IMG/VR virus record: IMGVR_UViG_3300031576_000010
Coordinates: 1 to 64,000 of that record
DNA: 64,000 bases
Strand: one strand, 5' to 3'
Origin: a virus
The position numbers and the translations under genes are program-made. Positions within the stretch are counted from its first letter, which is position 1, and each line of letters starts with the position of its first letter. Of this stretch, positions 5,120 to 25,481 are shown piece by piece. Below the pieces are notes generated by a model. The model did not search any database. It worked only from the letters and a program-made list of their open reading frames with translations, and was not told the DNA's origin.

Positions 5120-6754
5120 ATGTACCTCATAGACGGTACGCCACTCCTCTACAGGGCCGCCCACTCCTATACCCTGACAACCTCACGCGGTGAGCCAAGC
5201 GGCATCGTCTACGGAGCGGTTAAGATCCTGTTGGGGCTCATTCGCAAGCTCGACACCACCACCGCGGAGATAGTCGTGTTCTGGGACCATGGGAGATCAC
5301 GTTATCGGACCGCCCGCTACCCCGCCTACAAGGACACGCCCGCCCGCGCCGCATCCAAGGCGATGTTGCCAGGAGGATCGTTCCAGGATCAGCGGGCCGC
5401 CGTCCATGCCATCTTCCAGGCGAAGGGGATCCGACAGGTCTCGGTCGAGGGAATCGAAGCGGATGACCTCATCGCCATCGCGACGACCACCGGCACTCAT
5501 GTGGTCGTGTCGGACGATCTAGACCTTTGGCAGCTCATCGGGCAGCGCGGCACCCAGGTGTACGCGCCCGTCAAGGAGATGTGGGTCCGCGATCGGGACG
5601 ACTGCTTCAAGCTGACGGGCCTGTGGCCCGAGCAGATCGCCCCCTACAAATCACTTTCCGGTGATCCAAGTGACGGACTACCCGGCGTCACGGGCGTGGG
5701 CGACAAGACCGCCAAGCAGCTCCTGTCGGTCGTCCAAGACCTCGCCGAGCTGTACCGACGGCTTCGCACACCTGGCGACCGCTTGCCCGTCAGCGACCGG
5801 ATCGTCAACGCGCTGCTCGCCGAGGAGGATCGAGTCAAGCTGTGGTTCGACCTGTGCCAGCCGCTCGATTGGTCGATGCTGTCGCCCGCCGAGCAGGCCG
5901 GCTTTCTGGCCGGATGGCAGGGCCCCCTCCAGACCGACCGGACCGCCGAGTTCGAGCTGTACGAATCGTGGGAGCTGTACGAGTTCCGCCGGAAGCTATC
6001 GGAAGTCCCGTGGACCCGCCCGATCGCGGAGCCGGAGGTCCCGCGGGGCGATAGGATCGCCCGCCGGGGCATGCCGGCCAACCCGGACGATTGGCAGGTC
6101 CAACAGGCCGCCACCGCCGCGCAGGTGCGAGGCTGTCATGCCTGCACGATGCGACAGGAGTGCAGCGGGCCAGTTCCCGGCAACGTCGAGCGCGCGACTG
6201 AACGGCCGTGGGCCATGATCGTTGGGCGCAACCCAGGCGCCTCGGAGGACCGGGAAGGTCGTGGGTTCGTGGGGCCGGCGGGCAAGCGGCTCAACCAGTT
6301 GCTCGTCGGTCGAGCGGCCGATGAACGTGAGGTCCACGGCCGGTTGATCGAGCGCGCGACCACCTGGGTGACCAACACAGCGAAATGCTGGACAACAGGC
6401 AATCGAGAACCAGAGCCGCATGAGTGGCAGGTGTGCGCGGGGCTATTTCTCCGGGAAGAGATCCGGGCGATTCAGCCACGCCTCATCCTATCGTTCGGCG
6501 CGCTTGCGATGACTGCCTTGACAGGGTATACTGACTCCATCATGCAGCGATCCGGCACGACCGTCGCGGGCGTGGAAGCAAATGGGATAGTACAGTACGC
6601 CGTGCTGGATGGCGGGGAACGCCGGTGGGACCCTGTCATACCGCCCGCCTGCACGATCGTGTTGCTGCCCCACCCTGCCGCCGCGCTACGGACCAGGCAA
6701 GCGGAGCTGAAGCTCCAGCAGGCCGGCAGAGTTGTTGCGGATCTTCTCAAGTGA
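5120..6754 (+). CDS. 5'-3' exonuclease (PolA-N/FEN type) fused to family-4 uracil-DNA glycosylase-like domain
   Basis: N-terminal LIDG...EADD...SDDLDLWQL...GDPSDGLPGVTGVGDKTA; C-terminal CHACTMR...IVGRNPGASEDREGRGFVGPAGKRL, TNTAKC, NREP, LPHPAA. Confidence 0.85.
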   Translation: MYLIDGTPLLYRAAHSYTLTTSRGEPSGIVYGAVKILLGLIRKLDTTTAEIVVFWDHGRSRYRTARYPAYKDTPARAASKAMLPGGSFQDQRAAVHAIFQAKGIRQVSVEGIEADDLIAIATTTGTHVVVSDDLDLWQLIGQRGTQVYAPVKEMWVRDRDDCFKLTGLWPEQIAPYKSLSGDPSDGLPGVTGVGDKTAKQLLSVVQDLAELYRRLRTPGDRLPVSDRIVNALLAEEDRVKLWFDLCQPLDWSMLSPAEQAGFLAGWQGPLQTDRTAEFELYESWELYEFRRKLSEVPWTRPIAEPEVPRGDRIARRGMPANPDDWQVQQAATAAQVRGCHACTMRQECSGPVPGNVERATERPWAMIVGRNPGASEDREGRGFVGPAGKRLNQLLVGRAADEREVHGRLIERATTWVTNTAKCWTTGNREPEPHEWQVCAGLFLREEIRAIQPRLILSFGALAMTALTGYTDSIMQRSGTTVAGVEANGIVQYAVLDGGERRWDPVIPPACTIVLLPHPAAALRTRQAELKLQQAGRVVADLLK

Positions 6755-8774: not shown

Positions 8775-9034
8775 GCGGCCGGCCCATCACCGTCTCGATC
8801 GACTACTTGCCAGACGGATCCAACGACTTGGTCGCCGACGACGTCGTGGTGGTGGCGTTCCGGCGGGACGGCCGCGCGAACGTCGAGACCGTTCAGACGT
8901 TCCAACCGCGCCCCGATCGTCGCATCATGCTGAACGCCGCGAAGGCGCTGCTCGCCGAGCTGGCGGAGGATGAGCGTGACATCTATGGGAAAGCGGCGGC
9001 CAGGGCGCTCGAACGGGTCCACCGGAAACTGTAG
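8771..9034 (+). CDS. hypothetical protein
   Basis: ATGA overlap with the previous gene. Confidence 0.55.
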   Translation: MSGRPITVSIDYLPDGSNDLVADDVVVVAFRRDGRANVETVQTFQPRPDRRIMLNAAKALLAELAEDERDIYGKAAARALERVHRKL

Positions 9035-9183
9035 GGTCCGATGGGTCAACGGACGAGGCGGCGGCAGAGTGGTGGGGGGCGACACGATCAAGTGGATCGC
9101 GCCCGCCGAGTTCATTGTGCCGGTCACCATCGTCACCAGGAACATCGAGCAGGCGCTCGACGCGCTGGGTTGGAGGAAGCGAC

Positions 9184-10173: not shown

Positions 10174-10395
10174 GTGGGTCGGATCAAGGTCGAGGTGAAT
10201 GGCAAACTGGCCATGTTGCGCGAGGAGACGTCCATGGAGACGCGGGAGCGGGAGACTCGCGAGGCGTGGGCGGTTGAGGACCGGCAGACCCTCGTGTGCG
10301 CGGCCAAGAGCCGCCGGGTACCCGGCGCCGACCACATGAGCAGAGCTAAGCTGCTCGACGCTATTGTGGCGATTGAGCTGGGCAAGGATCGATGA
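10174..10395 (+). CDS. small protein with Rho-N/HeH-like motif
   Basis: AKSRRVPGADHMSRAKLLDAI. Confidence 0.45.
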   Translation: MGRIKVEVNGKLAMLREETSMETRERETREAWAVEDRQTLVCAAKSRRVPGADHMSRAKLLDAIVAIELGKDR

Positions 10396-11288
10396 TCACG
10401 CTGGCGGGCGCGGGGCGCGACCGACTCGCCATCTTCCTGGTCGACGAACCCGAGGATGCCGCGGCGGTGATCCGCTCGCTCCTGAACGTCCGGGAGAACC
10501 GGAACCAGACCGGCTTCTTCCTCCCGGTCCACGACTTCCCGATCCTCCGCGAACGGCTCGACCGCCTTGGCATCACCCAAACAACCGGCCGGCGCGAAAT
10601 GGACGACAACGCCGCACTCGCGGTCCGGTCGTACCTGGCCGCGCTCGAACGGAACGATCGCATCAAGGCGGGCGACCTGAACGACGAGATCGTCGCGGAC
10701 ATCGAAGCAGGTGCGCTCAAGAGTCCCCTGTGGACCGACCAGGTCGCGGACGTCCGGTTCATCCTGCGGCACGGGCGTGTCGGGGTGTTCAGCGAGATGG
10801 GGGTGGGCAAGAGCTTGACCGCGCTCGCCGGCTTCGTGGTCTTGCGGGCCCGCCGGCTCGCAAGGTACGCGCTGGTCATCGGGCCCAACGCGGTCAAGCA
10901 GAACTGGATCCGGCAGATCGCCCAGCACACCAGCATGACGGTCGAGGAGCTGGGGAACGGGCGGTCGACCGTCTTGCGCCGCATCAAGAAGCAGGCGGCC
11001 CGCCGGACCGACGTCTGCATCACGCACTACGAGGCGCTCCGGTCCGACGACATCCGCGACCAGCTCGTCAAGATGCCGTTCGACATGGTCATCTTAGATG
11101 AGATTCATCGTGCAAAAAACCTCGACACCGACACGACCAAGGCGGTGGCCGACACGCTCGCGCGGATCCGCCCGGCCGTCGAGCTAGTCGAAGCTGATAT
11201 CGAGCTGGTGACAGAGACTGGCATCGTATTGACGACCGCACTTCTTCCTGCTAGCATGGCCATTGGTGATGAGGTCGAGTTCCTCTAG
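10392..11288 (+). CDS. SNF2-family helicase, N-terminal fragment (motifs I-II)
   Basis: Walker A variant SEMGVGKS, ALVIGP, ITHYEAL and Walker B ILDEIH; stops before motif III. Confidence 0.85.
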   Translation: MITLAGAGRDRLAIFLVDEPEDAAAVIRSLLNVRENRNQTGFFLPVHDFPILRERLDRLGITQTTGRREMDDNAALAVRSYLAALERNDRIKAGDLNDEIVADIEAGALKSPLWTDQVADVRFILRHGRVGVFSEMGVGKSLTALAGFVVLRARRLARYALVIGPNAVKQNWIRQIAQHTSMTVEELGNGRSTVLRRIKKQAARRTDVCITHYEALRSDDIRDQLVKMPFDMVILDEIHRAKNLDTDTTKAVADTLARIRPAVELVEADIELVTETGIVLTTALLPASMAIGDEVEFL

Positions 11289-11958: not shown

Positions 11959-14049
11959 ATGAGCGACTACATCGACGACGTCTTCGGGGCGAACGGCATC
12001 TTGGCCAAGAGTGACCTGCGCGCCGCCGTCCGGCCCGGCCAGATCGAGATGGCGCGAGCGGTCGACCATTCGCTCCGCGCCCGCGCCAACATGATGTGCG
12101 AGGCGGGAACCGGGACGGGCAAAACGTTCGCCTACCTGGTGCCCGCGATCGCCAACCAGTTGGTCACGATCGTCGTGACGCGCAACAACCTGCTGGCCGA
12201 CCAGCTCTACCTCAAGGACCTGCCGACCCTCCACCGGCTCCTTCCGTGGAAGTTCACGTTCGCGCAGATCAAGGGGAAGGGGCGGTACCTGTGCGTCGCC
12301 AAGTTCCCGGGGCTTCCGGGCTCATCGCCCCCGCCCCTACAACGGTACGATGACGCCGACGTCGACGCCGAGATCCAGCGGTGGGCCCCAACCACCCGGA
12401 CGGGCGACTTCTCGGAGCTGTCGTTCACCATCCCGGACCGCCTGCTCCACCGCTACACCGCCAACCAGGACGAGTGTGAACGGCGCAAGTGCCCCGCGTT
12501 CCAGTCGTGCCACTACTACGCGGCCAAGCGGAACGCGGCAGTCGCCCAGGTGGTCGTGACCAACTACCACGTGTTCTTCTCGCACCTGCGGTACGGCCGC
12601 GTCCTGCCCGACTACGACGTCGTCATCATGGACGAGGGGCACGACGCCCCCGACATCGCGCGCGACTTCTTCGGGTTCCGCGTGACCGCTGGGGCGGTCA
12701 GGAGGATCGCGGGTCTGGTCGGCAGAGCCTCGAAGGCCAGCGGGGACGCGGCCGCCGCGCTCAAGAACGAGTTGATCGACTCGGCCAACACCCTGTTCGC
12801 CGACCTGGCTGCCTACCAGGCGATCGAGCGGGGCATCCGGATCAGGAAACCGATCGCCGTCGAGTACACCGGAACCGTCCGGCTGCTCCGCGATGCCGCC
12901 AGCCAGTTGAAAGACGAGGCCGATGAGCTGGCTGTAGAGGACCCGCCTGGCCGCCAGGAGTTGCTCCGGCATTCCCGCCGCGCCTCCGAACTGGCCCGCC
13001 AGATCACCGAGGCGGTCAACCTCTCGAAGCACGAGTCGTTCATCTACCAGATCGACGGCGATCGCGCCGACCTGGTCAGCCGGGCGATCAACCCGGCCGA
13101 GTTTCTCGCGCGCCATCTCAACGTCGGGCCCGCGCCCGACACCGAGGAGTCGAGCGCGGCCGAGAATGACGATGGCGTCTACGACGACCAACCGGCCGAC
13201 GAGACACCCGAGCCCCACGCGCACGTCATGACGTCCGCGACCATCACGACCCCGACGCTCGGCGGGGCGCCGTCGTTCGAGTTCGTGCGCACCACCATGG
13301 GGATCAAGGAGACGGGCGTCTGCTTGGCCGAGTCGCCATTCCAGCTCGACCGACAGTGCCTCCTGATCATCCCGTGGGAAGCGCCCAGGCCGCCGGAGGG
13401 TCGTCTGTCCCCCGCCACCAGAGCCGAACGGATGAAGGGGTGGCACGCGGGTGTCGCCAGCATGGTGGTCAAGGTGGCGGAGCGGGCGCGCGGCCGTACC
13501 CTCGCGCTCTTCACGTCGAACGCGTCGCTCAACGCATCGTACGACGCGCTCGTGCGCGCGGGCCTGCCGTACCAGATCCTCCGGCAGGGTGGCGGCACCC
13601 CCAACGCCAAGCTGGTCGAGGCGTTCAAGCGGGACGTCAACTCGGTCCTGCTGGGCGTCGACTCGTTCTGGCAGGGGATCGATGTGCCTGGCGAATCGCT
13701 CTCGTGCGTCGTGATCGACAAGCTGCCATACAAGCACAGCGGCATCGACCCCATCCTCGACGCGATCGAAGAGCGGGACGGACGCGACCGTGCGTTCACC
13801 GAGTACAACCTGCCCCGCACCATCATCCAGTTCCGACAGGCGTTCGGCCGGCTGATTCGGTCAGAGGCCGACAAGGGCGTGGTCGTCATGCTCGACCCGC
13901 GCGTCATCGAGCGAAACCGCGCCCAGTTTCTCGGCGCGTTGCCTGGTGTGCGACTCAGCCAGGACCTCGGCGACATCCCATGCTTCCTCGACGGCGCTGC
14001 ACCGATCCCATTCGTGTTGCCGCCTCCGCCGCGGGTTGGAATCCGATGA
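11959..14049 (+). CDS. dinG: DinG/YoaA-family Fe-S 5'-3' DNA helicase
   Basis: Q motif RPGQ, Walker A EAGTGTGKT, Fe-S cysteines (YLC...CERRKCPAFQSC), DEGH, FWQGIDVPG and QAFGRLIRS, all intact. Confidence 0.92.
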   Translation: MSDYIDDVFGANGILAKSDLRAAVRPGQIEMARAVDHSLRARANMMCEAGTGTGKTFAYLVPAIANQLVTIVVTRNNLLADQLYLKDLPTLHRLLPWKFTFAQIKGKGRYLCVAKFPGLPGSSPPPLQRYDDADVDAEIQRWAPTTRTGDFSELSFTIPDRLLHRYTANQDECERRKCPAFQSCHYYAAKRNAAVAQVVVTNYHVFFSHLRYGRVLPDYDVVIMDEGHDAPDIARDFFGFRVTAGAVRRIAGLVGRASKASGDAAAALKNELIDSANTLFADLAAYQAIERGIRIRKPIAVEYTGTVRLLRDAASQLKDEADELAVEDPPGRQELLRHSRRASELARQITEAVNLSKHESFIYQIDGDRADLVSRAINPAEFLARHLNVGPAPDTEESSAAENDDGVYDDQPADETPEPHAHVMTSATITTPTLGGAPSFEFVRTTMGIKETGVCLAESPFQLDRQCLLIIPWEAPRPPEGRLSPATRAERMKGWHAGVASMVVKVAERARGRTLALFTSNASLNASYDALVRAGLPYQILRQGGGTPNAKLVEAFKRDVNSVLLGVDSFWQGIDVPGESLSCVVIDKLPYKHSGIDPILDAIEERDGRDRAFTEYNLPRTIIQFRQAFGRLIRSEADKGVVVMLDPRVIERNRAQFLGALPGVRLSQDLGDIPCFLDGAAPIPFVLPPPPRVGIR

Positions 14050-15959
14050 AAAGAAAACTATTGACTACCGAAACAATGGACGATGACGTCACGCGAGAGA
14101 ATCAAGAGGAAGAGAAAACGGGACCAAAGCGCCATGTCCCGCGAGAGCGAGCAACCGCTGCCCTCCGACTCGATGTTCGACGCGTCACGTCCACCGGCCT
14201 CGTCGGCAAAGAGGCATGGGCATTGCTCACCTCCGAGTATGAAAAGGTCGCGCGGGGCGTCCAAGACGGACTGACACGTGTGTGGTTGCGGATCCACCAG
14301 CTACGTCAACAACACGGTCGAATCAGGTGGCCGTTTACCGCTGAGATGACGGCGTGGCCTGAAGGTACCCCATTACCAGTCGAGTGGTTTCGGGACACCG
14401 ACTTCGACCGGGATCCGACCGTAGGTCCGAGGTATATGCCGCCTATCATTACCGGCAAGACAAGCAAGCCATTGAAGAATCAACCCAAGAAGCCCGACTT
14501 CCTTGCGGCCTACCGGGCCGGCGAATGGTTGGGCGTACAGGACACCATCTACTACGCGCTCCGTGCCCAAGGGGTCGGTAGCGCGATCGCTGCCAGCACA
14601 TCCAACAAGATCGCCGGCTCGGAGCTGTCCTGGTCGAAGTTGATCCGGCTGATCAATGGTGGACTCAAGTATCCGGTGCTCGACCGAACATTCATGATCA
14701 TTCCAGGGAGTGACTGGAGCCTCTCGTTCTCTCCGGTCGAGCGCCCCGTCACCAAGAAGGATGAGCACGGCAACGTCATGGTCGACAAACGCGGCAAGGA
14801 GCTTTACGTACGCGATGCGGCCAAGAAGGTCATGTACGCGCCCGTCTTCGATGAGAACGGCGACCCGGTCCTCGCGCCCGTCATCAATTTCCGCGTCGGT
14901 ATCGACAACCTGCCTTTACGACTCACGTGCGAGCGGTTCCACGGGAAGGGCGCGCGTTCACGCAACGTCATCCTCAACCACTTGGCAGCGATGGGGGCAA
15001 GTGTCGGAGATGTCAACACCGACCAAAAGAAGACGCGAAGGAAGAAACCGCTCGATGCCGACGAAGTGGCCGCTATCATAAAGACTGGCTGGCACCGCGG
15101 AGCCATCACGATCCGTCGTGTCTGTGAGAGGGCCGGGGCCAAGACGTCGTGGCAAGCGATCATCGCATACCACTCGCCAAGACCGGACAAGAACACGGAG
15201 ACAGACGCGGTCGTCGCGGTACACCGAGGCATCGCCAACTTTCTGACGGTTGCGGTGCTGTATCCTAATCGAGACAAGCCGTGGTTTCCGCATGCTTTCT
15301 CCGGCGACGGGATCGTCCGATCGAAAGTGATGTTCGGGGCTGAGCGTGATCGAGCACGACGCCGCGGCGGCGGCGTTGGGCGGCGGGCGCGCAACCGCCT
15401 GATGGCAAAAGTGGGTGACAAGGAAAGACGGCTCAGCAGTCTTCACTGCTGGCGGGCTGCCGCCTGGCTACAACGTATCATCGAGGAGGTAAATCCCAAA
15501 CTAGTCATCCTAGACGATTTCTCCACGCCGATCGTATCGGACTCTGGAGAATCATTGCCAGGGATGATTACCAGGTTTCCGTTCGCCCAACTCAAGCTGA
15601 AGGTGATCGACGCCATCACTAGAAGGGCGGGCGTTGAAGTCATCGAGGTACCGTCGAAGTACGTGTCGGTCCAGTGCCCAGTGTGCAACAACACCGATCA
15701 GGGGAACATTCACAAGCGTGCGGGCGTACGGTGCATCCCGCATTTGGAACGAGATGATCGCAACGCTGGCACGTTCGTGGAATCGGGTGAGTTCCACTGC
15801 ACCATGTGTCACACGGTCGGCGACTTGGATCGGATCGCCGCGCTAAATCTGCTGATTCGAGTAGGTGATCCGGACGGGAAGCTCCGCAAAGGGCTGTGGC
15901 GATACTATGAGCAGATCAACAGGGTCAAGGAGGCGGAAAAGAAGAAGAAGGTCGGATAG
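14046..15959 (+). CDS. cas12: type V CRISPR effector, Cas12f-like, 637 aa, non-canonical RuvC (H-D-D)
   Basis: RuvC-I VVAVHRG, Arg-rich helix RGGGVGRRAR, RuvC-II LVILDDF, FPFAQL, Zn finger CPVC...CTMC, RuvC-III DLDRIAALNL; adjacent to the CRISPR array; ATG overlaps the DinG TGA. Confidence 0.9.
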   Translation: MKRKLLTTETMDDDVTRENQEEEKTGPKRHVPRERATAALRLDVRRVTSTGLVGKEAWALLTSEYEKVARGVQDGLTRVWLRIHQLRQQHGRIRWPFTAEMTAWPEGTPLPVEWFRDTDFDRDPTVGPRYMPPIITGKTSKPLKNQPKKPDFLAAYRAGEWLGVQDTIYYALRAQGVGSAIAASTSNKIAGSELSWSKLIRLINGGLKYPVLDRTFMIIPGSDWSLSFSPVERPVTKKDEHGNVMVDKRGKELYVRDAAKKVMYAPVFDENGDPVLAPVINFRVGIDNLPLRLTCERFHGKGARSRNVILNHLAAMGASVGDVNTDQKKTRRKKPLDADEVAAIIKTGWHRGAITIRRVCERAGAKTSWQAIIAYHSPRPDKNTETDAVVAVHRGIANFLTVAVLYPNRDKPWFPHAFSGDGIVRSKVMFGAERDRARRRGGGVGRRARNRLMAKVGDKERRLSSLHCWRAAAWLQRIIEEVNPKLVILDDFSTPIVSDSGESLPGMITRFPFAQLKLKVIDAITRRAGVEVIEVPSKYVSVQCPVCNNTDQGNIHKRAGVRCIPHLERDDRNAGTFVESGEFHCTMCHTVGDLDRIAALNLLIRVGDPDGKLRKGLWRYYEQINRVKEAEKKKKVG

Positions 15960-15964
15960 GGATT

Positions 15965-16107
15965 CTCGGCGGCGAGAAGGAGCTGTGAAGCGATGGTCCC
16001 CAACAGACGGCCGACTGCACCGGCCGACTGGGTACCGCACTGTCGGTATCGCAAAACCACCGCGAGCATACGGGCCAGCAGCTTCACATCTCCTTCTTGC
16101 CGCAGAG
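15965..16107 (+). ncRNA. candidate tracrRNA
   Basis: A 27-bp imperfect terminal stem (15965-15991 with 16081-16107) encloses two hairpins; CTGCAC (16015-16020) and CCACCGC (16057-16063) are complementary to the repeat 3' end. Confidence 0.65.
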
Positions 16108-16152
16108 TACGGCGTGCGAGCGGTCCAGTGGTGCGTAACCAACAGAACCGAC

Positions 16153-16164
16153 GTTCTTTGACAA
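16153..16164 (+). promoter_or_regulatory. boxA-like antitermination site (or -35 element) in the CRISPR leader
   Basis: GTTCTTTGACAA, 84 nt upstream of repeat 1. Confidence 0.45.
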
Positions 16165-16204
16165 TTCAAAGGTAGCTGACGACGTTTTGCTAGGTGCTCG
16201 CAAT

Positions 16205-16248
16205 CCCGTCGCCAGGTACGCGGATTTGTACCGCTACCTGGCGACGGG
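16205..16248. repeat. leader-terminal inverted repeat
   Basis: Perfect 14-bp arms CCCGTCGCCAGGTA / TACCTGGCGACGGG ending on the first base of repeat 1. Confidence 0.85.
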
Positions 16249-19242
16249 TTCGCATCGGTAGGGACGATGCGGTGGAGTGCAGGAAGCGGATCAGCGAACG
16301 GGAGAAGGACCGCCGGGAGGTTCGCATCGGTAGGGACGATGCGGTGGAGTGCAGGTCGGCCGCTATCAGTGCGATCGCCTCGTTGAGGGTCGTTCGCATC
16401 GGTAGGGACGATGCGGTGGAGTGCAGGAGATAGTGACATCGGAATGGGACCGATTCTGAACCGAGTTCGCATCGGTAGGGACGATGCGGTGGAGTGCAGG
16501 GGCAGCGTCGAAGCGCAATGCGCGGCCGACGCGGAGTTCGCATCGGTAGGGACGATGCGGTGGAGTGCAGGCGGAAACGGAACTGCATGACGCGCATGAA
16601 GCTGGGTGGTTCGCATCGGTAGGGACGATGCGGTGGAGTGCAGGCCGTGGGCCAACCGGGCGAGCCAGTCGGCCTGGTTCGGTTCGCATCGGTAGGGACG
16701 ATGCGGTGGAGTGCAGGCAGTTTTCGGCCCGCCAGGCGGCGCCCGCTCTCACCGTTCGCATCGGTAGGGACGATGCGGTGGAGTGCAGGGTGAAGTAGCC
16801 GTCGGCCGATGCCGCCGCGCACCTGCCGGGTTCGCATCGGTAGGGACGATGCGGTGGAGTGCAGGGAGCGAGTCGCGTTCGATCAACCATCCCGGCCCGA
16901 CGTTCGCATCGGTAGGGACGATGCGGTGGAGTGCAGGGGCGCAAGCTGAAGGTGCTATTCGATGTCGGCTTCTCGTTCGCATCGGTAGGGACGATGCGGT
17001 GGAGTGCAGGGAGAACAAGGACCAGAGCCTGAACGTTGTCCTTGACGTTCGCATCGGTAGGGACGATGCGGTGGAGTGCAGGTGGGCCGAGCGATACGGC
17101 AAGTCCCTCGGGCTGGACGGTTCGCATCGGTAGGGACGATGCGGTGGAGTGCAGGTCCTGATCGGCGGCTCTACGGGATCAACGTGAGTAGTAGTTCGCA
17201 TCGGTAGGGACGATGCGAAGGAGTGCAGGGCGATCGTTTCGCGAACCGGGGTCGGCACCGTCTACTTCGGTTCGCATCGGTAGGGACGATGCGGTGGAGT
17301 GCAGGGGAGGTTCCGACGGCGCCTCCTCCGAAAGACTGGAGTTCGCATCGGTAGGGACGATGCGGTGGAGTGCAGGTCGTGTGGCGCGTCGACGAAGCGA
17401 TGGAGCAGGAGTGGTTCGCATCGGTAGGGACGATGCGGTGGAGTGCAGGATCGGAATGCCGCGCGCCAGCCCCTGCCGCACGATGGGTTCGCATCGGTAG
17501 GGACGATGCGGTGGAGTGCAGGGTCGGACACACCTCGGCCCTCGCGCGGCCAGGCGACAGGTTCGCATCGGTAGGGACGATGCGGTGGAGTGCAGGCACG
17601 AGACGAAACACCCACGACTTGCGCGGGCGGAGAGTTCGCATCGGTAGGGACGATGCGGTGGAGTGCAGGGGGAGTGCGCGGTCTGGGTTGACGATGAGGT
17701 CGCGAGGTTCGCATCGGTAGGGACGATGCGGTGGAGTGCAGGAACGCGGAACCAAGGCGACCGAGTTCCTCCCACTCGGGCGGTTCGCATCGGTAGGGAC
17801 GATGCGGTGGAGTGCAGGGCGTGCTGACCGGTGCCGGGCGGTAGCGATCTGACCGGTTCGCATCGGTAGGGACGATGCGGTGGAGTGCAGGTCCATCGAG
17901 GGCATCCCCCTCCTAAGCGGAGCTATCGGTTCGCATCGGTAGGGACGATGCGGTGGAGTGCAGGATCGGGTGCATCGAGAATGGCCCTGGTCGCTCTCGC
18001 AGTTCGCATCGGTAGGGACGATGCGGTGGAGTGCAGGAACTGGCGGTTCTCGGGGGTGAGGGCGCAACGGACGCGTTCGCATCGGTAGGGACGATGCGGT
18101 GGAGTGCAGGATGGTCGAGGTGTTCATGACGTCGAGCGGAACTGGGGTTCGCATCGGTAGGGACGATGCGGTGGAGTGCAGGATGGTCGAGGTGTTCATG
18201 ACGTCGAGCGGAACTGGGGTTCGCATCGGTAGGGACGATGCGGTGGAGTGCAGGCAGCGCAGCGACGATGGCCACAGGCGTCACTGGTGCGGGTTCGCAC
18301 CGGTAGAAACGATGCGGTGGAGTGCAGGGTTCGCCAACACGATCATGAAGTATGAAGTCTCGGCATCTGCCGATCGCACCGGTAGGGACGATGCGGTGGA
18401 GTGCAGGCGATGAATGGCTGCTCGGCGAGCTTGCCGACTTCGCGGATCGCACCGGTAGGAACGATGCGGTGGAGTGCAGGTGGTAGTGCGACAACGAGAA
18501 GTCGTGGTGACGGACCAGATCGCACCGGTAGGATGCGGTGGAGTGCAGGCCCAACTCCCCTCGAACCAACCGCGCACCAAATCGCCGAGATCGCACCGGT
18601 AGGGACGATGCGGTGGAGTGCAGGTACGAAGCGAGGCACGTCCGAGGCGAGATTCTGGACTGATCGCACCGGTAGGGACGATGCGGTGGAGTGCAGGAAC
18701 AACCCGGGCTGCACCGCAACGTGTGCGAGCGCCTAGGAACGATGTGGTGGAGTGGTGGAGTGGTGGAGTGCAGGAACGTGTTGTCGGTCCACTCGATAGG
18801 AACGATGTGGTGGAGTGCAGGCAGCCAGGTCAGCCAGCACCCTTCAGCACCCTTGCGGTGATGCCTGTTCGCACCGGTAGGAACGATGCGGTGGAGTGCA
18901 GGCAGGCGGGTGCCGCGTCAGGTGCCCAGCTCGGCTCCAGGTTCGCACGATGTGGTGGAGTGCAGGGCACAGATCGCGGGTGACTTGGTGCTCGCGGAGA
19001 CGCACTGGTATGAACGATGCGGTGGAGTGCAGGGGGCGCGACGAGATGCCTGTCGCCCCTAGGATACCGGATCGCAGTAGGAACGATGCGGTGGAGTGCA
19101 GGACCACAACGTGCGGGTCCGTCAACTGCCGGATTGCGCACCGGTAAGAACGATGCGGTGGAGTGCAGGATCTGGTTCTCGTCGTTCTTCGCTTGGGCCC
19201 AGGTTGTTCAGCACCGGTAGGAACGGTGCGGTGGAAGTAAAG
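16248..19242 (+). CRISPR. CRISPR array, about 42 repeats / 41 spacers
   Basis: 36-nt repeat GTTCGCATCGGTAGGGACGATGCGGTGGAGTGCAGG with a CGCATCG/CGATGCG stem; spacers mostly 35-40 nt; 28 near-perfect repeats at the Cas12-proximal end and progressive degeneration distally. Confidence 0.98.
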
Positions 19243-19272
19243 ATCGCACAGGCGTAGGAGAGGAAGACTGAG

Positions 19273-19869
19273 ATGGAAGAGAGAAAAAGCAGGTACACAA
19301 ACTGGCTCACAGAGCTACGTGCGACACGTGCTCAAAGGGCCAAGGACGAGATCGCGTTCTACGCTCGCATCGCCGAGTTCGAGACCGATACGGACTCGTG
19401 GGAATGGACAGGTATCTCGTTCGACCGAATCCTCAAGCTGGAATGCGGCATCTCGCCAGACCGCTACCGCGCGTACGTCAAGGCTGTCCGGCTCATCGGC
19501 CATGAGATGCTGCTTGGACTCGGGATGGACGTTGCGCTACGGCTCCGTCGTTTCATCGTTGATGACATTATACTGGCGACCCGTCTTTATGAGCGGGTTG
19601 CCACCCGCATCATTGGGTTCTCTGCTACGCACGACCGCTACCCAAGCCCAACCTACATCGGCCAGATCCTACGTGAAGAAGCCAAACGGCTCGGCATCGT
19701 CGTGCCGGTCAAGCAGAAGACCGAAGACAAGCTACAAACGGCGATCGGTGCGCTTCGCCGCATCGCTGAAGCGAAGGGTCTGAGCCGCAAAGAGATGCAG
19801 ACGATCGCCGCCGAAACGCTCGTACAAGTGGACATTGAGGTGGATGGTGTGGAGGACCACCCGGAGTGA
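19273..19869 (+). CDS. hypothetical protein downstream of the array
   Basis: RBS-preceded ATG; 198 aa, helical; GTGA overlap with the SNF2 C-fragment. Confidence 0.7.
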   Translation: MEERKSRYTNWLTELRATRAQRAKDEIAFYARIAEFETDTDSWEWTGISFDRILKLECGISPDRYRAYVKAVRLIGHEMLLGLGMDVALRLRRFIVDDIILATRLYERVATRIIGFSATHDRYPSPTYIGQILREEAKRLGIVVPVKQKTEDKLQTAIGALRRIAEAKGLSRKEMQTIAAETLVQVDIEVDGVEDHPE

Positions 19870-20933
19870 AGGGCCGCATCCGCTCCGTCCGCCCGTTCCA
19901 GGAGGCCCGCCGCGTCCTCCTGACCGGCACGCCTGTCAGCGAATCTCCGCTCAACGCGTTCCCCGTCCTCCAGCTCATCGCGCCCGAACGCGTTCCGTCG
20001 AAGACCCGGTTCGACCACCACTTCATCGTCCGGGCCGCCACAAAGGCGGGGCCCGTCACCGTCCAGAAGGCGGTCGGCTACAACAACCTCGACGAGCTGA
20101 AGCGGATGCTGGAGGCGGTGTCGGTCCGGCGCCTGAAGGCCGACATCCGCGGGATGCCCGACCGCGTCGAGACGGTGCGGTACTGCCAGCCATCCGGCCG
20201 CCAACACGACCACTACCGCGAGATCCTCAAGGGCATCCTGGCCGACATCGCCGCGTCGCCCGACTGGGCCCTCACGCTCGACATCGCGTGCGTCAAGTTG
20301 CTGCGGCTCCGCCAGGTGCTCAACTCGCCCGAGATCCTCGGGCTCGACGGGCGGTCCGGCAAGTACGACGAGCTGGATGGAGTGGTCGAGGAGGTGCTCT
20401 CTGATTCCGGCCCATACGAAGCGAAGCTGTTGATCTGGACCGAGTGGAACCGGGCGGTCGACCTCCTAGCCAGCCGGTACTCTGGACACGGAGTCATCAC
20501 GGTCGACCAGCGGACCACTCAGCAGCAACTCGCCGAGTATGAGAGGACGTTTGACCGTTCAGATGAGCGGATTGTGATTGGGACGCCAAAAAAGGCCGGG
20601 ACGGGGATGGACTGGCTGGCTAGGTGTCGGACGGCCATTTACGTCGAGAAGACGTACTCGCTGGTCAACCATGTTCAAAGCATAGATCGGATCGTCCGGA
20701 GGGTCGGGGAGGGTGACCCGGCCGACTCACCGGCTGTTCAGCAGGTCAAGCGAATCAAGCGGTCACCCGCGTCCATCCTGTATCTCCACGTGCAAAACAG
20801 CGTTGACGACGCGGTTGATTTCGTCCTCCGGAGGAAAATCGATCTTGGCGTCGCCCTCCTCACAGAAGATGCTAGACTCATGGAAGATGGGCGTATGGAT
20901 TTACTCCAGATGCTCCAGACGGGCATGAGCTAG
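19866..20933 (+). CDS. SNF2-family helicase, C-terminal fragment (motif III and HELICc)
   Basis: RRVLLTGTP, RRLKADI, LLRLRQ, SGK, KLLIWT, AGTGMD, QSIDRIVR. Confidence 0.88.
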   Translation: MKGRIRSVRPFQEARRVLLTGTPVSESPLNAFPVLQLIAPERVPSKTRFDHHFIVRAATKAGPVTVQKAVGYNNLDELKRMLEAVSVRRLKADIRGMPDRVETVRYCQPSGRQHDHYREILKGILADIAASPDWALTLDIACVKLLRLRQVLNSPEILGLDGRSGKYDELDGVVEEVLSDSGPYEAKLLIWTEWNRAVDLLASRYSGHGVITVDQRTTQQQLAEYERTFDRSDERIVIGTPKKAGTGMDWLARCRTAIYVEKTYSLVNHVQSIDRIVRRVGEGDPADSPAVQQVKRIKRSPASILYLHVQNSVDDAVDFVLRRKIDLGVALLTEDARLMEDGRMDLLQMLQTGMS

Positions 20934-23740: not shown

Positions 23741-25481
23741 AGGTCAAGATCCCAGAGCCGCTCTACCGCGTCGAGACCAAGGCGCTCAAGTCCTACCTCA
23801 ACGAGGACAAGTTCCGCTACCAGAAGTACGCGGAGGTCGAGCTGTCCGAGCTGTCGCGGCCACGGTTCCGCGCGCTCGTGAAGATGTGCGAGCCCCACCA
23901 GAAGATCCGGGGGGTCGGCCTTCTCCTCAAGGACATGCGCGCGTGGGAGCGGGTCGCGGCCGGCGACCATTCGGTCAAGCCCCGGTCGGTCGAGCAGTTC
24001 GCCGATATGGCGACCGAACTGATCCGTACGTCGGCGGGCCACCGGCTCTACCGCAAGGACCCCGAACGAGACATCTGGCTCGCCTACTACGTCAACAGGG
24101 TCGCGTACCACCCGCCCGAACATCGCAGCCATGGGTACGAGACGCCCCCGTCATGCAGCATCCGGCTCATCTGGGAGGAATTCGCCCAGCGCCACCAAGA
24201 TAGCCCGACGTGGCACGCGGAGGACTCGCTCCACATCACGCCCGCCGAAGCGCTGGGCCGCAAGGGCTACTTCATCGAGACCGAAGAGATGCGCGCCACT
24301 ACATGGCCGACAGGGACCGGTTCCACCAGCTTGTCGGTCGGGTCGGCCTCCAGGTTCTCGCGACCGGCGTCGCGACCGACGACCTAGATGGCAACCGGGA
24401 GGGGCGTAAGAGTTCATGGTACTGGAGCCGGACGAATCGTATCCGGCTCGAACACGCGGGCGAGCCGGCCCGCATGGTCGTGGACGTGTTCCGCGAAGGC
24501 GACAAGGAAGACGAGGAGCGGGACATTCCGATCGACCCGTGGTTCTGGGACCGCAAGACGACGGCGGTTGGCGAGTGGGACGATGACGACGGCGGTGACC
24601 AAGATGACGACCGCGAGGATCTGGCGCCCGATGACGTCAAGGAGCGCCAGCTCCCAGAGATCCCCCTCCACCCGATGCTCGCCACGTTCGACATGCGGCG
24701 CCACATGCGCCTGCGCGTCCACGTCGCGTGCGTCGAGCCCTACCGCTACGACGAGACGATCGCCACCAGGCTGATCCTTCCGCCGGACGACCGAGGGCTC
24801 GTCGAGATGCTGGTCGCGCACAACGGCGTGTTCCGCGACGTGGTGGCGGGCAAGAGTGGGGGCGCCGTCATCCTGGCGGCCGGGCCGCCCGGCACCGGCA
24901 AGACGCTGACCGCTGAGGTGTACGCCGAGGCGATGAAGCGGCCGCTCTACAGCGTGCAGTGCAGCCAGTTGGGCGTCAGCCCCGAGGAGCTGGAGGAAGA
25001 GCTGCTCAAGGTGTTCGTCAGATCCCAGAGGTGGAACGCGATCCTCCTGCTCGACGAGGCGGACGTGTACGTGGCGGCTCGGGGCAACGACCTCGACCAG
25101 AACGCGATTGTCGGGGTATTCCTCCGGACCCTCGAATACTACGCGGGCGTCCTGTTCCTCACGACCAACCGGGCCGACGCGGTCGACGATGCGGTGGCGA
25201 GCCGGTGCATCGCGCGCATCGACTATCGGGTGCCGGCCAGCGAGGCGCAGCGGCGCATCTGGGAGGTGCTGTCCACGACGGCCGGCATCGCCATCTCCGA
25301 TGCGGTCATCGACCAGGCGGTCGGCGAGTTCCACGACCTGACCGGCCGCGACATCAAGAACCTGTTGAAGCTCTCCCGGATGGTCGGGGCGGCACGCAAC
25401 CAACCCATCACCATCGAAACGATCCGGTGGGTCAAGCGGTTCAAGCCGACCGGACGGGCATCCCGTAGCCGTTTCTATTGA
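23737..25481 (+). pseudogene. AAA+ ATPase with a single-base frameshift near 24297
   Basis: GPPGTGKTLTAE, LLDEADV, FLTTNR; N-part (MKVKIP...EEMRA) and C-part (HYMADRDRF...) join if one C is restored. Confidence 0.75.

Follow-up and report, generated by a model that had tools for sequence, protein, structure and literature searches.

A candidate tracrRNA-like scaffold RNA between a phage-borne Cas12f-like effector gene and its CRISPR array

The window analyzed herein, a stretch of 64,000 nucleotides, covers the initial 64 kb of a virus record in IMG/VR (IMGVR_UViG_3300031576_000010), which is 99.9 kb long and originated from a cave metagenome. As summarized in Table 1, it carries a cassette on the plus strand in which a DinG/YoaA-like helicase gene is followed by a gene for a Cas12f-like effector and by a CRISPR array, and a gene encoding an HTH/HNH protein is located upstream of the helicase and effector genes. 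The sole sizeable non-coding stretch of the cassette is a 288-nt gap that extends from the effector stop (15959) to the first repeat (16248) and holds the 143-nt element, for which an earlier interpretation made from the letters of the DNA alone (hereafter, the sequence-only reading) had proposed a role as a tracrRNA. No adaptation genes were found in the phage record, and an Rfam search of positions 13000-19500 at a permissive threshold matched no family. An SNF2 helicase domain is encoded in two halves (Pfam SNF2-rel_dom positions 23-150 and 148-289) that lie 8.6 kb apart at 10392-11288 and 19866-20933, and the whole HNH-DinG-Cas12f-array cassette sits between them; it looks as if an SNF2 gene had been split, with the cassette inserted or nested within it.

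Table 1. Coordinates of the features of the cassette, numbered from the first nucleotide of the window.
Feature	Position	Strand	Basis or remark
DinG/YoaA-like helicase gene	11959..14049	+	stop overlaps effector start (ATGA)
Cas12f-like effector gene, 637 aa	14046..15959	+	Pfam Cas12f1-like_TNB, family profile, Foldseek, VIA
Candidate scaffold RNA element, 143 nt	15965..16107	+	
Closing stem, 5' arm	15965..15991	+	MFE fold; inverted-repeat ranking
Hairpin A, CGGCCG stem (16008-16013, 16021-16026) with 7-nt loop ACTGCAC (16014-16020)	16008..16026	+	MFE fold
Anti-repeat 1, CTGCAC, complement of repeat nt 30-35 (-7 to -2 from spacer)	16015..16020	+	exact match, hairpin A loop
Hairpin B, GGTACCG (16031-16037) / CGGTATC (16044-16050), separating the two anti-repeats	16031..16050	+	MFE fold
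Anti-repeat 2, CCACCGC, single-stranded junction, complement of repeat nt 22-28	16057..16063	+	exact match, predicted fold
Closing stem, 3' arm	16081..16107	+	MFE fold; inverted-repeat ranking
Leader hairpin, 19 bp, adjoining the array and reaching 6 nt into repeat 1	16200..16253	+	predicted fold, inverted-repeat listing
CRISPR array, 42 repeats	16248..19242	+	28 uniform repeats of 36 nt, followed by about 14 decayed ones

In the effector, Pfam detected a Cas12f1-like TNB domain alone. A HMMER search of 1.84 billion representative proteins retrieved about 14 close relatives of 490-614 aa, and the profile of this family matched all solved Cas12f structures (E 1e-24 to 1e-16), with Cas12g following at E 1e-5, Cas12c2 at E 0.55, and Cas12m being absent at E <= 10. 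The best matches of an AlphaFold model of the effector (pLDDT 72.5) were AsCas12f, OsCas12f, and SpCas12f1 (Foldseek E 1e-16, TM 0.65; VIA Z 15-17.4, with 17.4 for AsCas12f), whereas its match to Cas12m (VIA Z 11.2, Foldseek E 4e-8) was well below those to Cas12f. As judged from the profile and the modeled fold, the effector is a relative of Cas12f, and by profile it is closer to Cas12f than to Cas12m. Its RuvC-I motif reads VHRG, in which His393 aligns with the catalytic Asp of SpCas12f1, and the resulting His-Asp-Asp RuvC site suggests that the protein probably binds DNA rather than cutting it.

No relatives were found among the viral contigs, metagenome contigs, or genome contigs scanned, the protein family of the effector having no relative in IMG/VR, and tblastn gave no match against plasmids. 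Against phages, tblastn yielded Virus Rctr197k (KX853510.1) alone as a relative, and the remoter matches were ordinary Cas12f or TnpB genes. The one remoter match that was translated, a gene of Alicyclobacillus phage MMB025 (PV686781.1), has an intact active site; this apparently active Cas12f-like gene is annotated as 'transposase', and the region upstream of it (PV686781.1 3400-3940) contains two different mini-arrays separated by a gap of about 190 nt. The MMB025 locus may be a canonical phage V-F locus.

Within the array, the uniform repeats lie by the gap and the decayed ones at the far end, indicating that the leader is on the gap side and that the array is read on the plus strand. In the decayed repeats, the deviation from the consensus amounted to about 39% of cells at positions 1-16 and about 4% at positions 17-36, and the 3' 20 nt were intact in 13 of these repeats. 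The 3' 20 nt are accordingly constrained, in contrast to the 5' arm of the hairpin formed by the repeat, and 13 of these 20 retained nucleotides are covered by the two anti-repeats of the element together. The repeat itself is palindromic, forming one 8-bp hairpin (nt 3-25, -11.9 kcal/mol) followed by an 11-nt tail without a cis partner, in contrast to the non-palindromic repeats usual in tracr-dependent systems (PMC10097598). The spacers matched nothing among phages, plasmids, or the phage record itself.

Several repeats and spacers depart individually from this pattern. Repeat 14 (17194-17229) alone reads GCGAAGG instead of GCGGTGG, a change that would break two pairs with anti-repeat 2. The adjacent spacers at 18111-18146 and 18183-18218 are identical, indicating a duplicated repeat-spacer unit, and the decayed repeat at 18723-18774 shows a slippage expansion of GTGGAGTG (8-nt unit, 3.4 copies). 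A repeat-like 3' half, comprising 17 repeat 3' bases with a 1-nt insertion (ACGATGCG, 3 nt, GGAGTGCAG), was also observed at 6146-6165 inside a gene for a 5'-3' exonuclease/UDG fusion (5120-6754), and is adjoined by an imperfect 30-nt inverted repeat (6185-6214 / 6331-6360).

The element in the gap is predicted to adopt an exceptionally stable multi-hairpin fold, its minimum free energy (MFE) of -79.6 kcal/mol comparing with -48.6 +/- 3.9 for shuffled sequences (z -7.9). The architecture described in the sequence-only reading was reproduced in the MFE fold: the closing stem pairs over 27 positions with two mismatches (G.A and C.U) and one G.U, hairpin A displays CTGCAC in its loop, and the second hairpin, B, forms from GGTACCG and CGGTATC. 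The closing stem is at the same time the top-ranked inverted repeat of the whole 64-kb window (89% complementary). The minus strand of the element folded more weakly (z -5.3), and this difference together with the single G.U pair favors the plus strand as the one that would give rise to the RNA. The element is present as a single copy in the phage record. Among sequencing runs, two DNA runs of the cave-metagenome sample of origin contained the stretch and showed the element without variants, and no RNA run was listed for it. Neither a promoter nor a terminator was predicted at the element. A MITE was ruled out by the single copy and the lack of a target-site duplication.

Both segments that had been put forward as anti-repeats are exact complements of the repeat, CTGCAC of nt 30-35 and CCACCGC of nt 22-28, and both are exposed in the predicted fold as had been claimed, with probabilities of being unpaired of 1.00 and 0.79, respectively, as compared with 0.32 for the whole element. 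They are colinear and antiparallel to the repeat and would form separate duplexes of 6 and 7 bp; that of anti-repeat 2 amounts to about -14.8 kcal/mol over its 7 bp (8 counting a G.U) and would compete with the base of the repeat's own hairpin (nt 22-25). A short 5-7 nt anti-repeat by the guide (R:AR-1) is thus present in the form of CTGCAC, its pairing being predicted. A long repeat:anti-repeat stem (stem 5, R:AR-2), in contrast, was absent from the gap and from the rest of the locus, with only CCACCGC in its place, and the whole 99.9-kb record contained no longer anti-repeat except for a 13-mer at 25185-25197 on the minus strand. This 13-mer, which lies within an AAA ATPase gene in antisense orientation, was discounted as a chance match.

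In the predicted fold, the 27-bp stem seals off the multiloop that encloses both anti-repeats, a situation that RNAcofold cannot represent. The sequence-only reading had further expected the element to provide a direct design for a single-guide RNA; this expectation fails because both anti-repeats lie inside the sealed multiloop, leaving no free 3' anti-repeat end to be fused to the crRNA.

The extent to which the complementarity exceeds chance varied with the specificity of the test, from ordinary to P ~2-6e-4. The RNAduplex energy between the repeat and the element was unremarkable (20th percentile), and 5.8% of background windows contained a colinear 6+7 chain when the whole repeat was the target, while restricting the complementarity to unpaired bases gave P 0.003-0.013. 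In the most specific test, which is post hoc since its design was framed after the element had been seen, anti-repeat 1 had to lie wholly in a hairpin loop with its pairing reaching the last or second-last repeat base, and anti-repeat 2 had to lie downstream and pair with the abutting repeat segment at a gap of <= 1 nt. The 288-nt gap scored 13 in this test; under nulls built from natural 36-mers, from shuffled repeats, or by shuffling the tail only, P(>=13) was 1.5e-4 to 6e-4. A score of 12 was not reached by any of 1,332 other windows of 288 nt taken from the record (seven reached 10-11), and both the minus strand and the reversed repeat scored 0.

The locus in Virus Rctr197k shows a comparable arrangement, in which a 467-aa homologue, also carrying VHRG, is followed by a 237-nt structured gap and then by a 4-repeat array with a different repeat. 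In this gap, a GGGCCC/GGGCCC hairpin presents in its loop CCCGC, the complement of nt 32-36 of its own repeat, and GATCGA downstream is the complement of the abutting nt 26-31. With the design already fixed in the window, and in a comparison that comprises this one relative, the gap scored 11 against its own repeat (P(any) 0.6%, P(>=11) 0.2%). This replication is ambiguous because the Rctr197k gap also fits the repeat of the window: CCTGCA, located in another hairpin loop (8966-8971), and ACTCCAC downstream (9040-9046) constitute an exact split complement of the tail of the window's repeat (nt 25-36), giving a design score of 12 (P 0.001-0.002). No array with the window's repeat tail was found in the Rctr197k record. 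Two explanations present themselves: the nulls understate how common such matches are, or a handle is shared across the family.

Apart from these complementarities, a few colinear motifs are common to both gaps, namely a 14-mer (GCGAGCGGTCCAGT at 16116-16129 of the window versus GCGAGGGGTCCAGT at KX853510.1 8877-8890) and the core stem of the leader hairpin, GTCGCCAG/CTGGCGAC, which recurs at KX853510.1 8927-8946. Aligning one gap locally with the other gave no overall significance (P 0.08), and a single-sequence covariance model of the element gave no match in Rctr197k. The genome of Rctr197k additionally contains a second, unrelated Cas12-like gene (110803-114219 region) of 622 codons, annotated as a pseudogene yet open, that lies 33 nt from a 1.5-kb array; its intact Asp-Glu-Asp site and different repeat ruled out that it belongs to the same system.

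Taken as a whole, these predictions suggest, with a probability of roughly 0.6, that the element encodes on its plus strand a tracrRNA-like scaffold RNA for the phage-borne Cas12f-like effector, which is probably nuclease-dead. In favor of this reading, the effector is related to Cas12f, and Cas12f1 depends strictly on a tracrRNA (PMC11246509). What speaks for the original tracrRNA proposal is the Cas12f-type effector, the position in the gap, and the exposed, colinear anti-repeats, and what speaks against it is the absence of a long stem and the palindromic nature of the repeat. For this reading, we infer the ends of the RNA, its expression, its binding by the effector, and the role of the repeat hairpin.

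Of the features of known Cas12f guides, the element has the adjacency to the effector gene and the order of the parts, but not the long stem. The order guide-PK(R:AR-1)-stem(R:AR-2), which is conserved from TnpB to Cas12, fits the order of the elements found here (PMC10097598). Like the tracrRNAs of AsCas12f, SpCas12f1, and Un1Cas12f1, which are about 140-160 nt long with several stems, the element lies beside a gene for an effector of the Cas12f fold, and the guide-side anti-repeat would form a short pseudoknot duplex with the second anti-repeat pairing farther upstream in the repeat (PMC10097598, PMC11246509). A closing stem joining the 5' and 3' sides is predicted in both the present element and the SpCas12f1 guide, in which a head-to-toe stem links the 5' end to the stem-5 region (PMC12255294). 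The statement in the sequence-only reading that Cas12f tracrRNAs pair through two short separate duplexes holds for the first of them, since the Cas12f1 guide contains a 5-7 bp pseudoknot duplex, but not for the second, which is a long repeat:anti-repeat stem (PMC11246509). The element differs from the Cas12f1 tracrRNAs in exactly this respect, its second duplex comprising 7-8 bp, as well as in having both anti-repeats in a sealed multiloop, the first of them in a hairpin loop, and in facing a palindromic repeat; the effector in turn differs from Cas12f1 in the His at RuvC-I and in being co-encoded with a DinG-like helicase.

Two other systems share parts of this design. The omegaRNA of ISDra2 TnpB likewise starts at the nuclease gene's 3' end and shares the guide-PK-stem core, in which the bases immediately 5' of the guide form a pseudoknot of 3-5 bp (PMC10097598); it is, however, one molecule with a fixed guide, whereas here the guide would come in trans from the 42-repeat array. 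The Cas12c tracrRNA pairs through three disjoint repeat:anti-repeat stems of 4-7 bp (PMC11246509), comparable in length to the 6 and 7 bp predicted here, and the two short separate duplexes are closer to this design than to that of Cas12f, but the present effector is unrelated to Cas12c both in size (637 aa) and in profile.

Among the rival explanations, the one that survives best holds that the effector uses a crRNA only, with the repeat hairpin as its handle, and that the element is a structured 3'-UTR or a processing element whose complementarity to the repeat is incidental. The element would then be an mRNA-stabilizing or RNase III-type site that parts the cas transcript from the pre-crRNA, and the 27-bp duplex would indeed be plausible as an RNase III substrate. 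We regard this explanation as unlikely, although it deserves serious attention. It is in line with the palindromic repeat, which is typical of tracr-independent systems, with the observation that the stem is kept or restored in the oldest, intermediate, and young repeats, and with the shortness of the anti-repeats and their ordinary generic duplex energy. Naturally dead Cas12f homologues examined to date that drive transcription also use single guide RNAs without a tracrRNA (PMC13472631). Furthermore, the type V-M effector Cas12m, a protein of about 600 aa that binds DNA without cutting and carries His-Asp-Asp or Asn-Asp-Asp variants of the RuvC site, operates without a tracrRNA (PMC11013384).

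On the other hand, the repeats of Cas12m form two stems and a cis pseudoknot, whereas the present repeat forms one hairpin, and the effector is Cas12f-like rather than Cas12m-like in its profile, which does not match Cas12m at E <= 10, the fold match being weaker as well (Z 11 vs 17). Tracr-independent guides place the stem and the pseudoknot beside the guide (PMC10097598), whereas here 11-13 nt without a cis partner separate the repeat hairpin from the spacer. The decayed repeats also count against a crRNA-only effector in that they have lost the 5' arm but kept the 3' 20 nt, as does the rarity of complementarity in a loop plus a downstream segment.

That the element acts at the DNA level or in regulation, as an operator, a recombination-type inverted repeat, or an array leader element instead of a guide scaffold, appears quite improbable. 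A long inverted repeat at the boundary of the cas gene and the array, the HTH/HNH protein encoded upstream, and a weak promoter-like site on the minus strand in the 5' arm could be read in its favor; one such promoter-like match, however, is what shuffled sequences give, the inverted repeat is single-copy without a target-site duplication, and an RNA is indicated by the inner hairpins, by the G.U pair, and by the difference in folding between the strands. Least of all do we expect an adaptor or decoy RNA that captures or sequesters crRNAs made elsewhere, such as host crRNAs with a similar handle: the lack of adaptation genes, the split complement of the window's repeat tail in Rctr197k despite its different own repeat, and a repeat outline (a hairpin and a tail of about 11-12 nt starting with GTGGA) that presumably recalls type I-C repeats would all suit it, but the adjacent array is the simplest partner.

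If the element is indeed a tracrRNA-like scaffold, its RNA would be produced along with the dinG-cas12 operon or immediately after it. Closure of the scaffold would fall to the 27-bp stem, which would act in the manner of SpCas12f1's head-to-toe stem and may serve as a processing site. The loop CUGCAC would pair with the spacer-adjacent repeat bases to form a pseudoknot (R:AR-1) as in all TnpB/Cas12 guides, and the junction CCACCGC with the abutting upstream repeat bases to form a short equivalent of stem 5 (R:AR-2). The Cas12f-like protein would bind the composite of element and crRNA, with the spacer directing DNA binding without cutting, and the bound target could possibly be passed to the co-encoded DinG helicase.

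A bolder variant, which we consider improbable, is that the element represents a 'caged' adaptor tracrRNA that keeps both anti-repeats in the sealed multiloop, docks only on a handle of 13-15 nt (GCGGTGGAGTGCAGG), and turns hairpin-type crRNAs, which host enzymes may have processed, into guides with which a Cas12f-DinG machine would act without cutting. This handle may be common to the members of the rare family of phage dCas12f proteins, or may also occur in type I-style crRNAs of the host. Were this true, the split complement of the same handle in Rctr197k would be the same adaptor in a second phage.

Taken singly, the tracrRNA-like scaffold proposed here is a component prediction. If real, the element would supply the guide component that is missing from a system of great rarity, with about 15 relatives among 1.8 billion representative proteins. 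In this system, a Cas12f-like effector encoded by a phage, and probably binding its target without cutting it, is coupled to a DinG helicase, and knowledge of the scaffold RNA is a precondition for reconstituting such a system. It would also mean that no more than two contacts of 6-7 bp with a palindromic repeat are enough for a guide of the Cas12f type to function, and would represent a step between the tracr-dependent and tracr-independent designs of type V systems.
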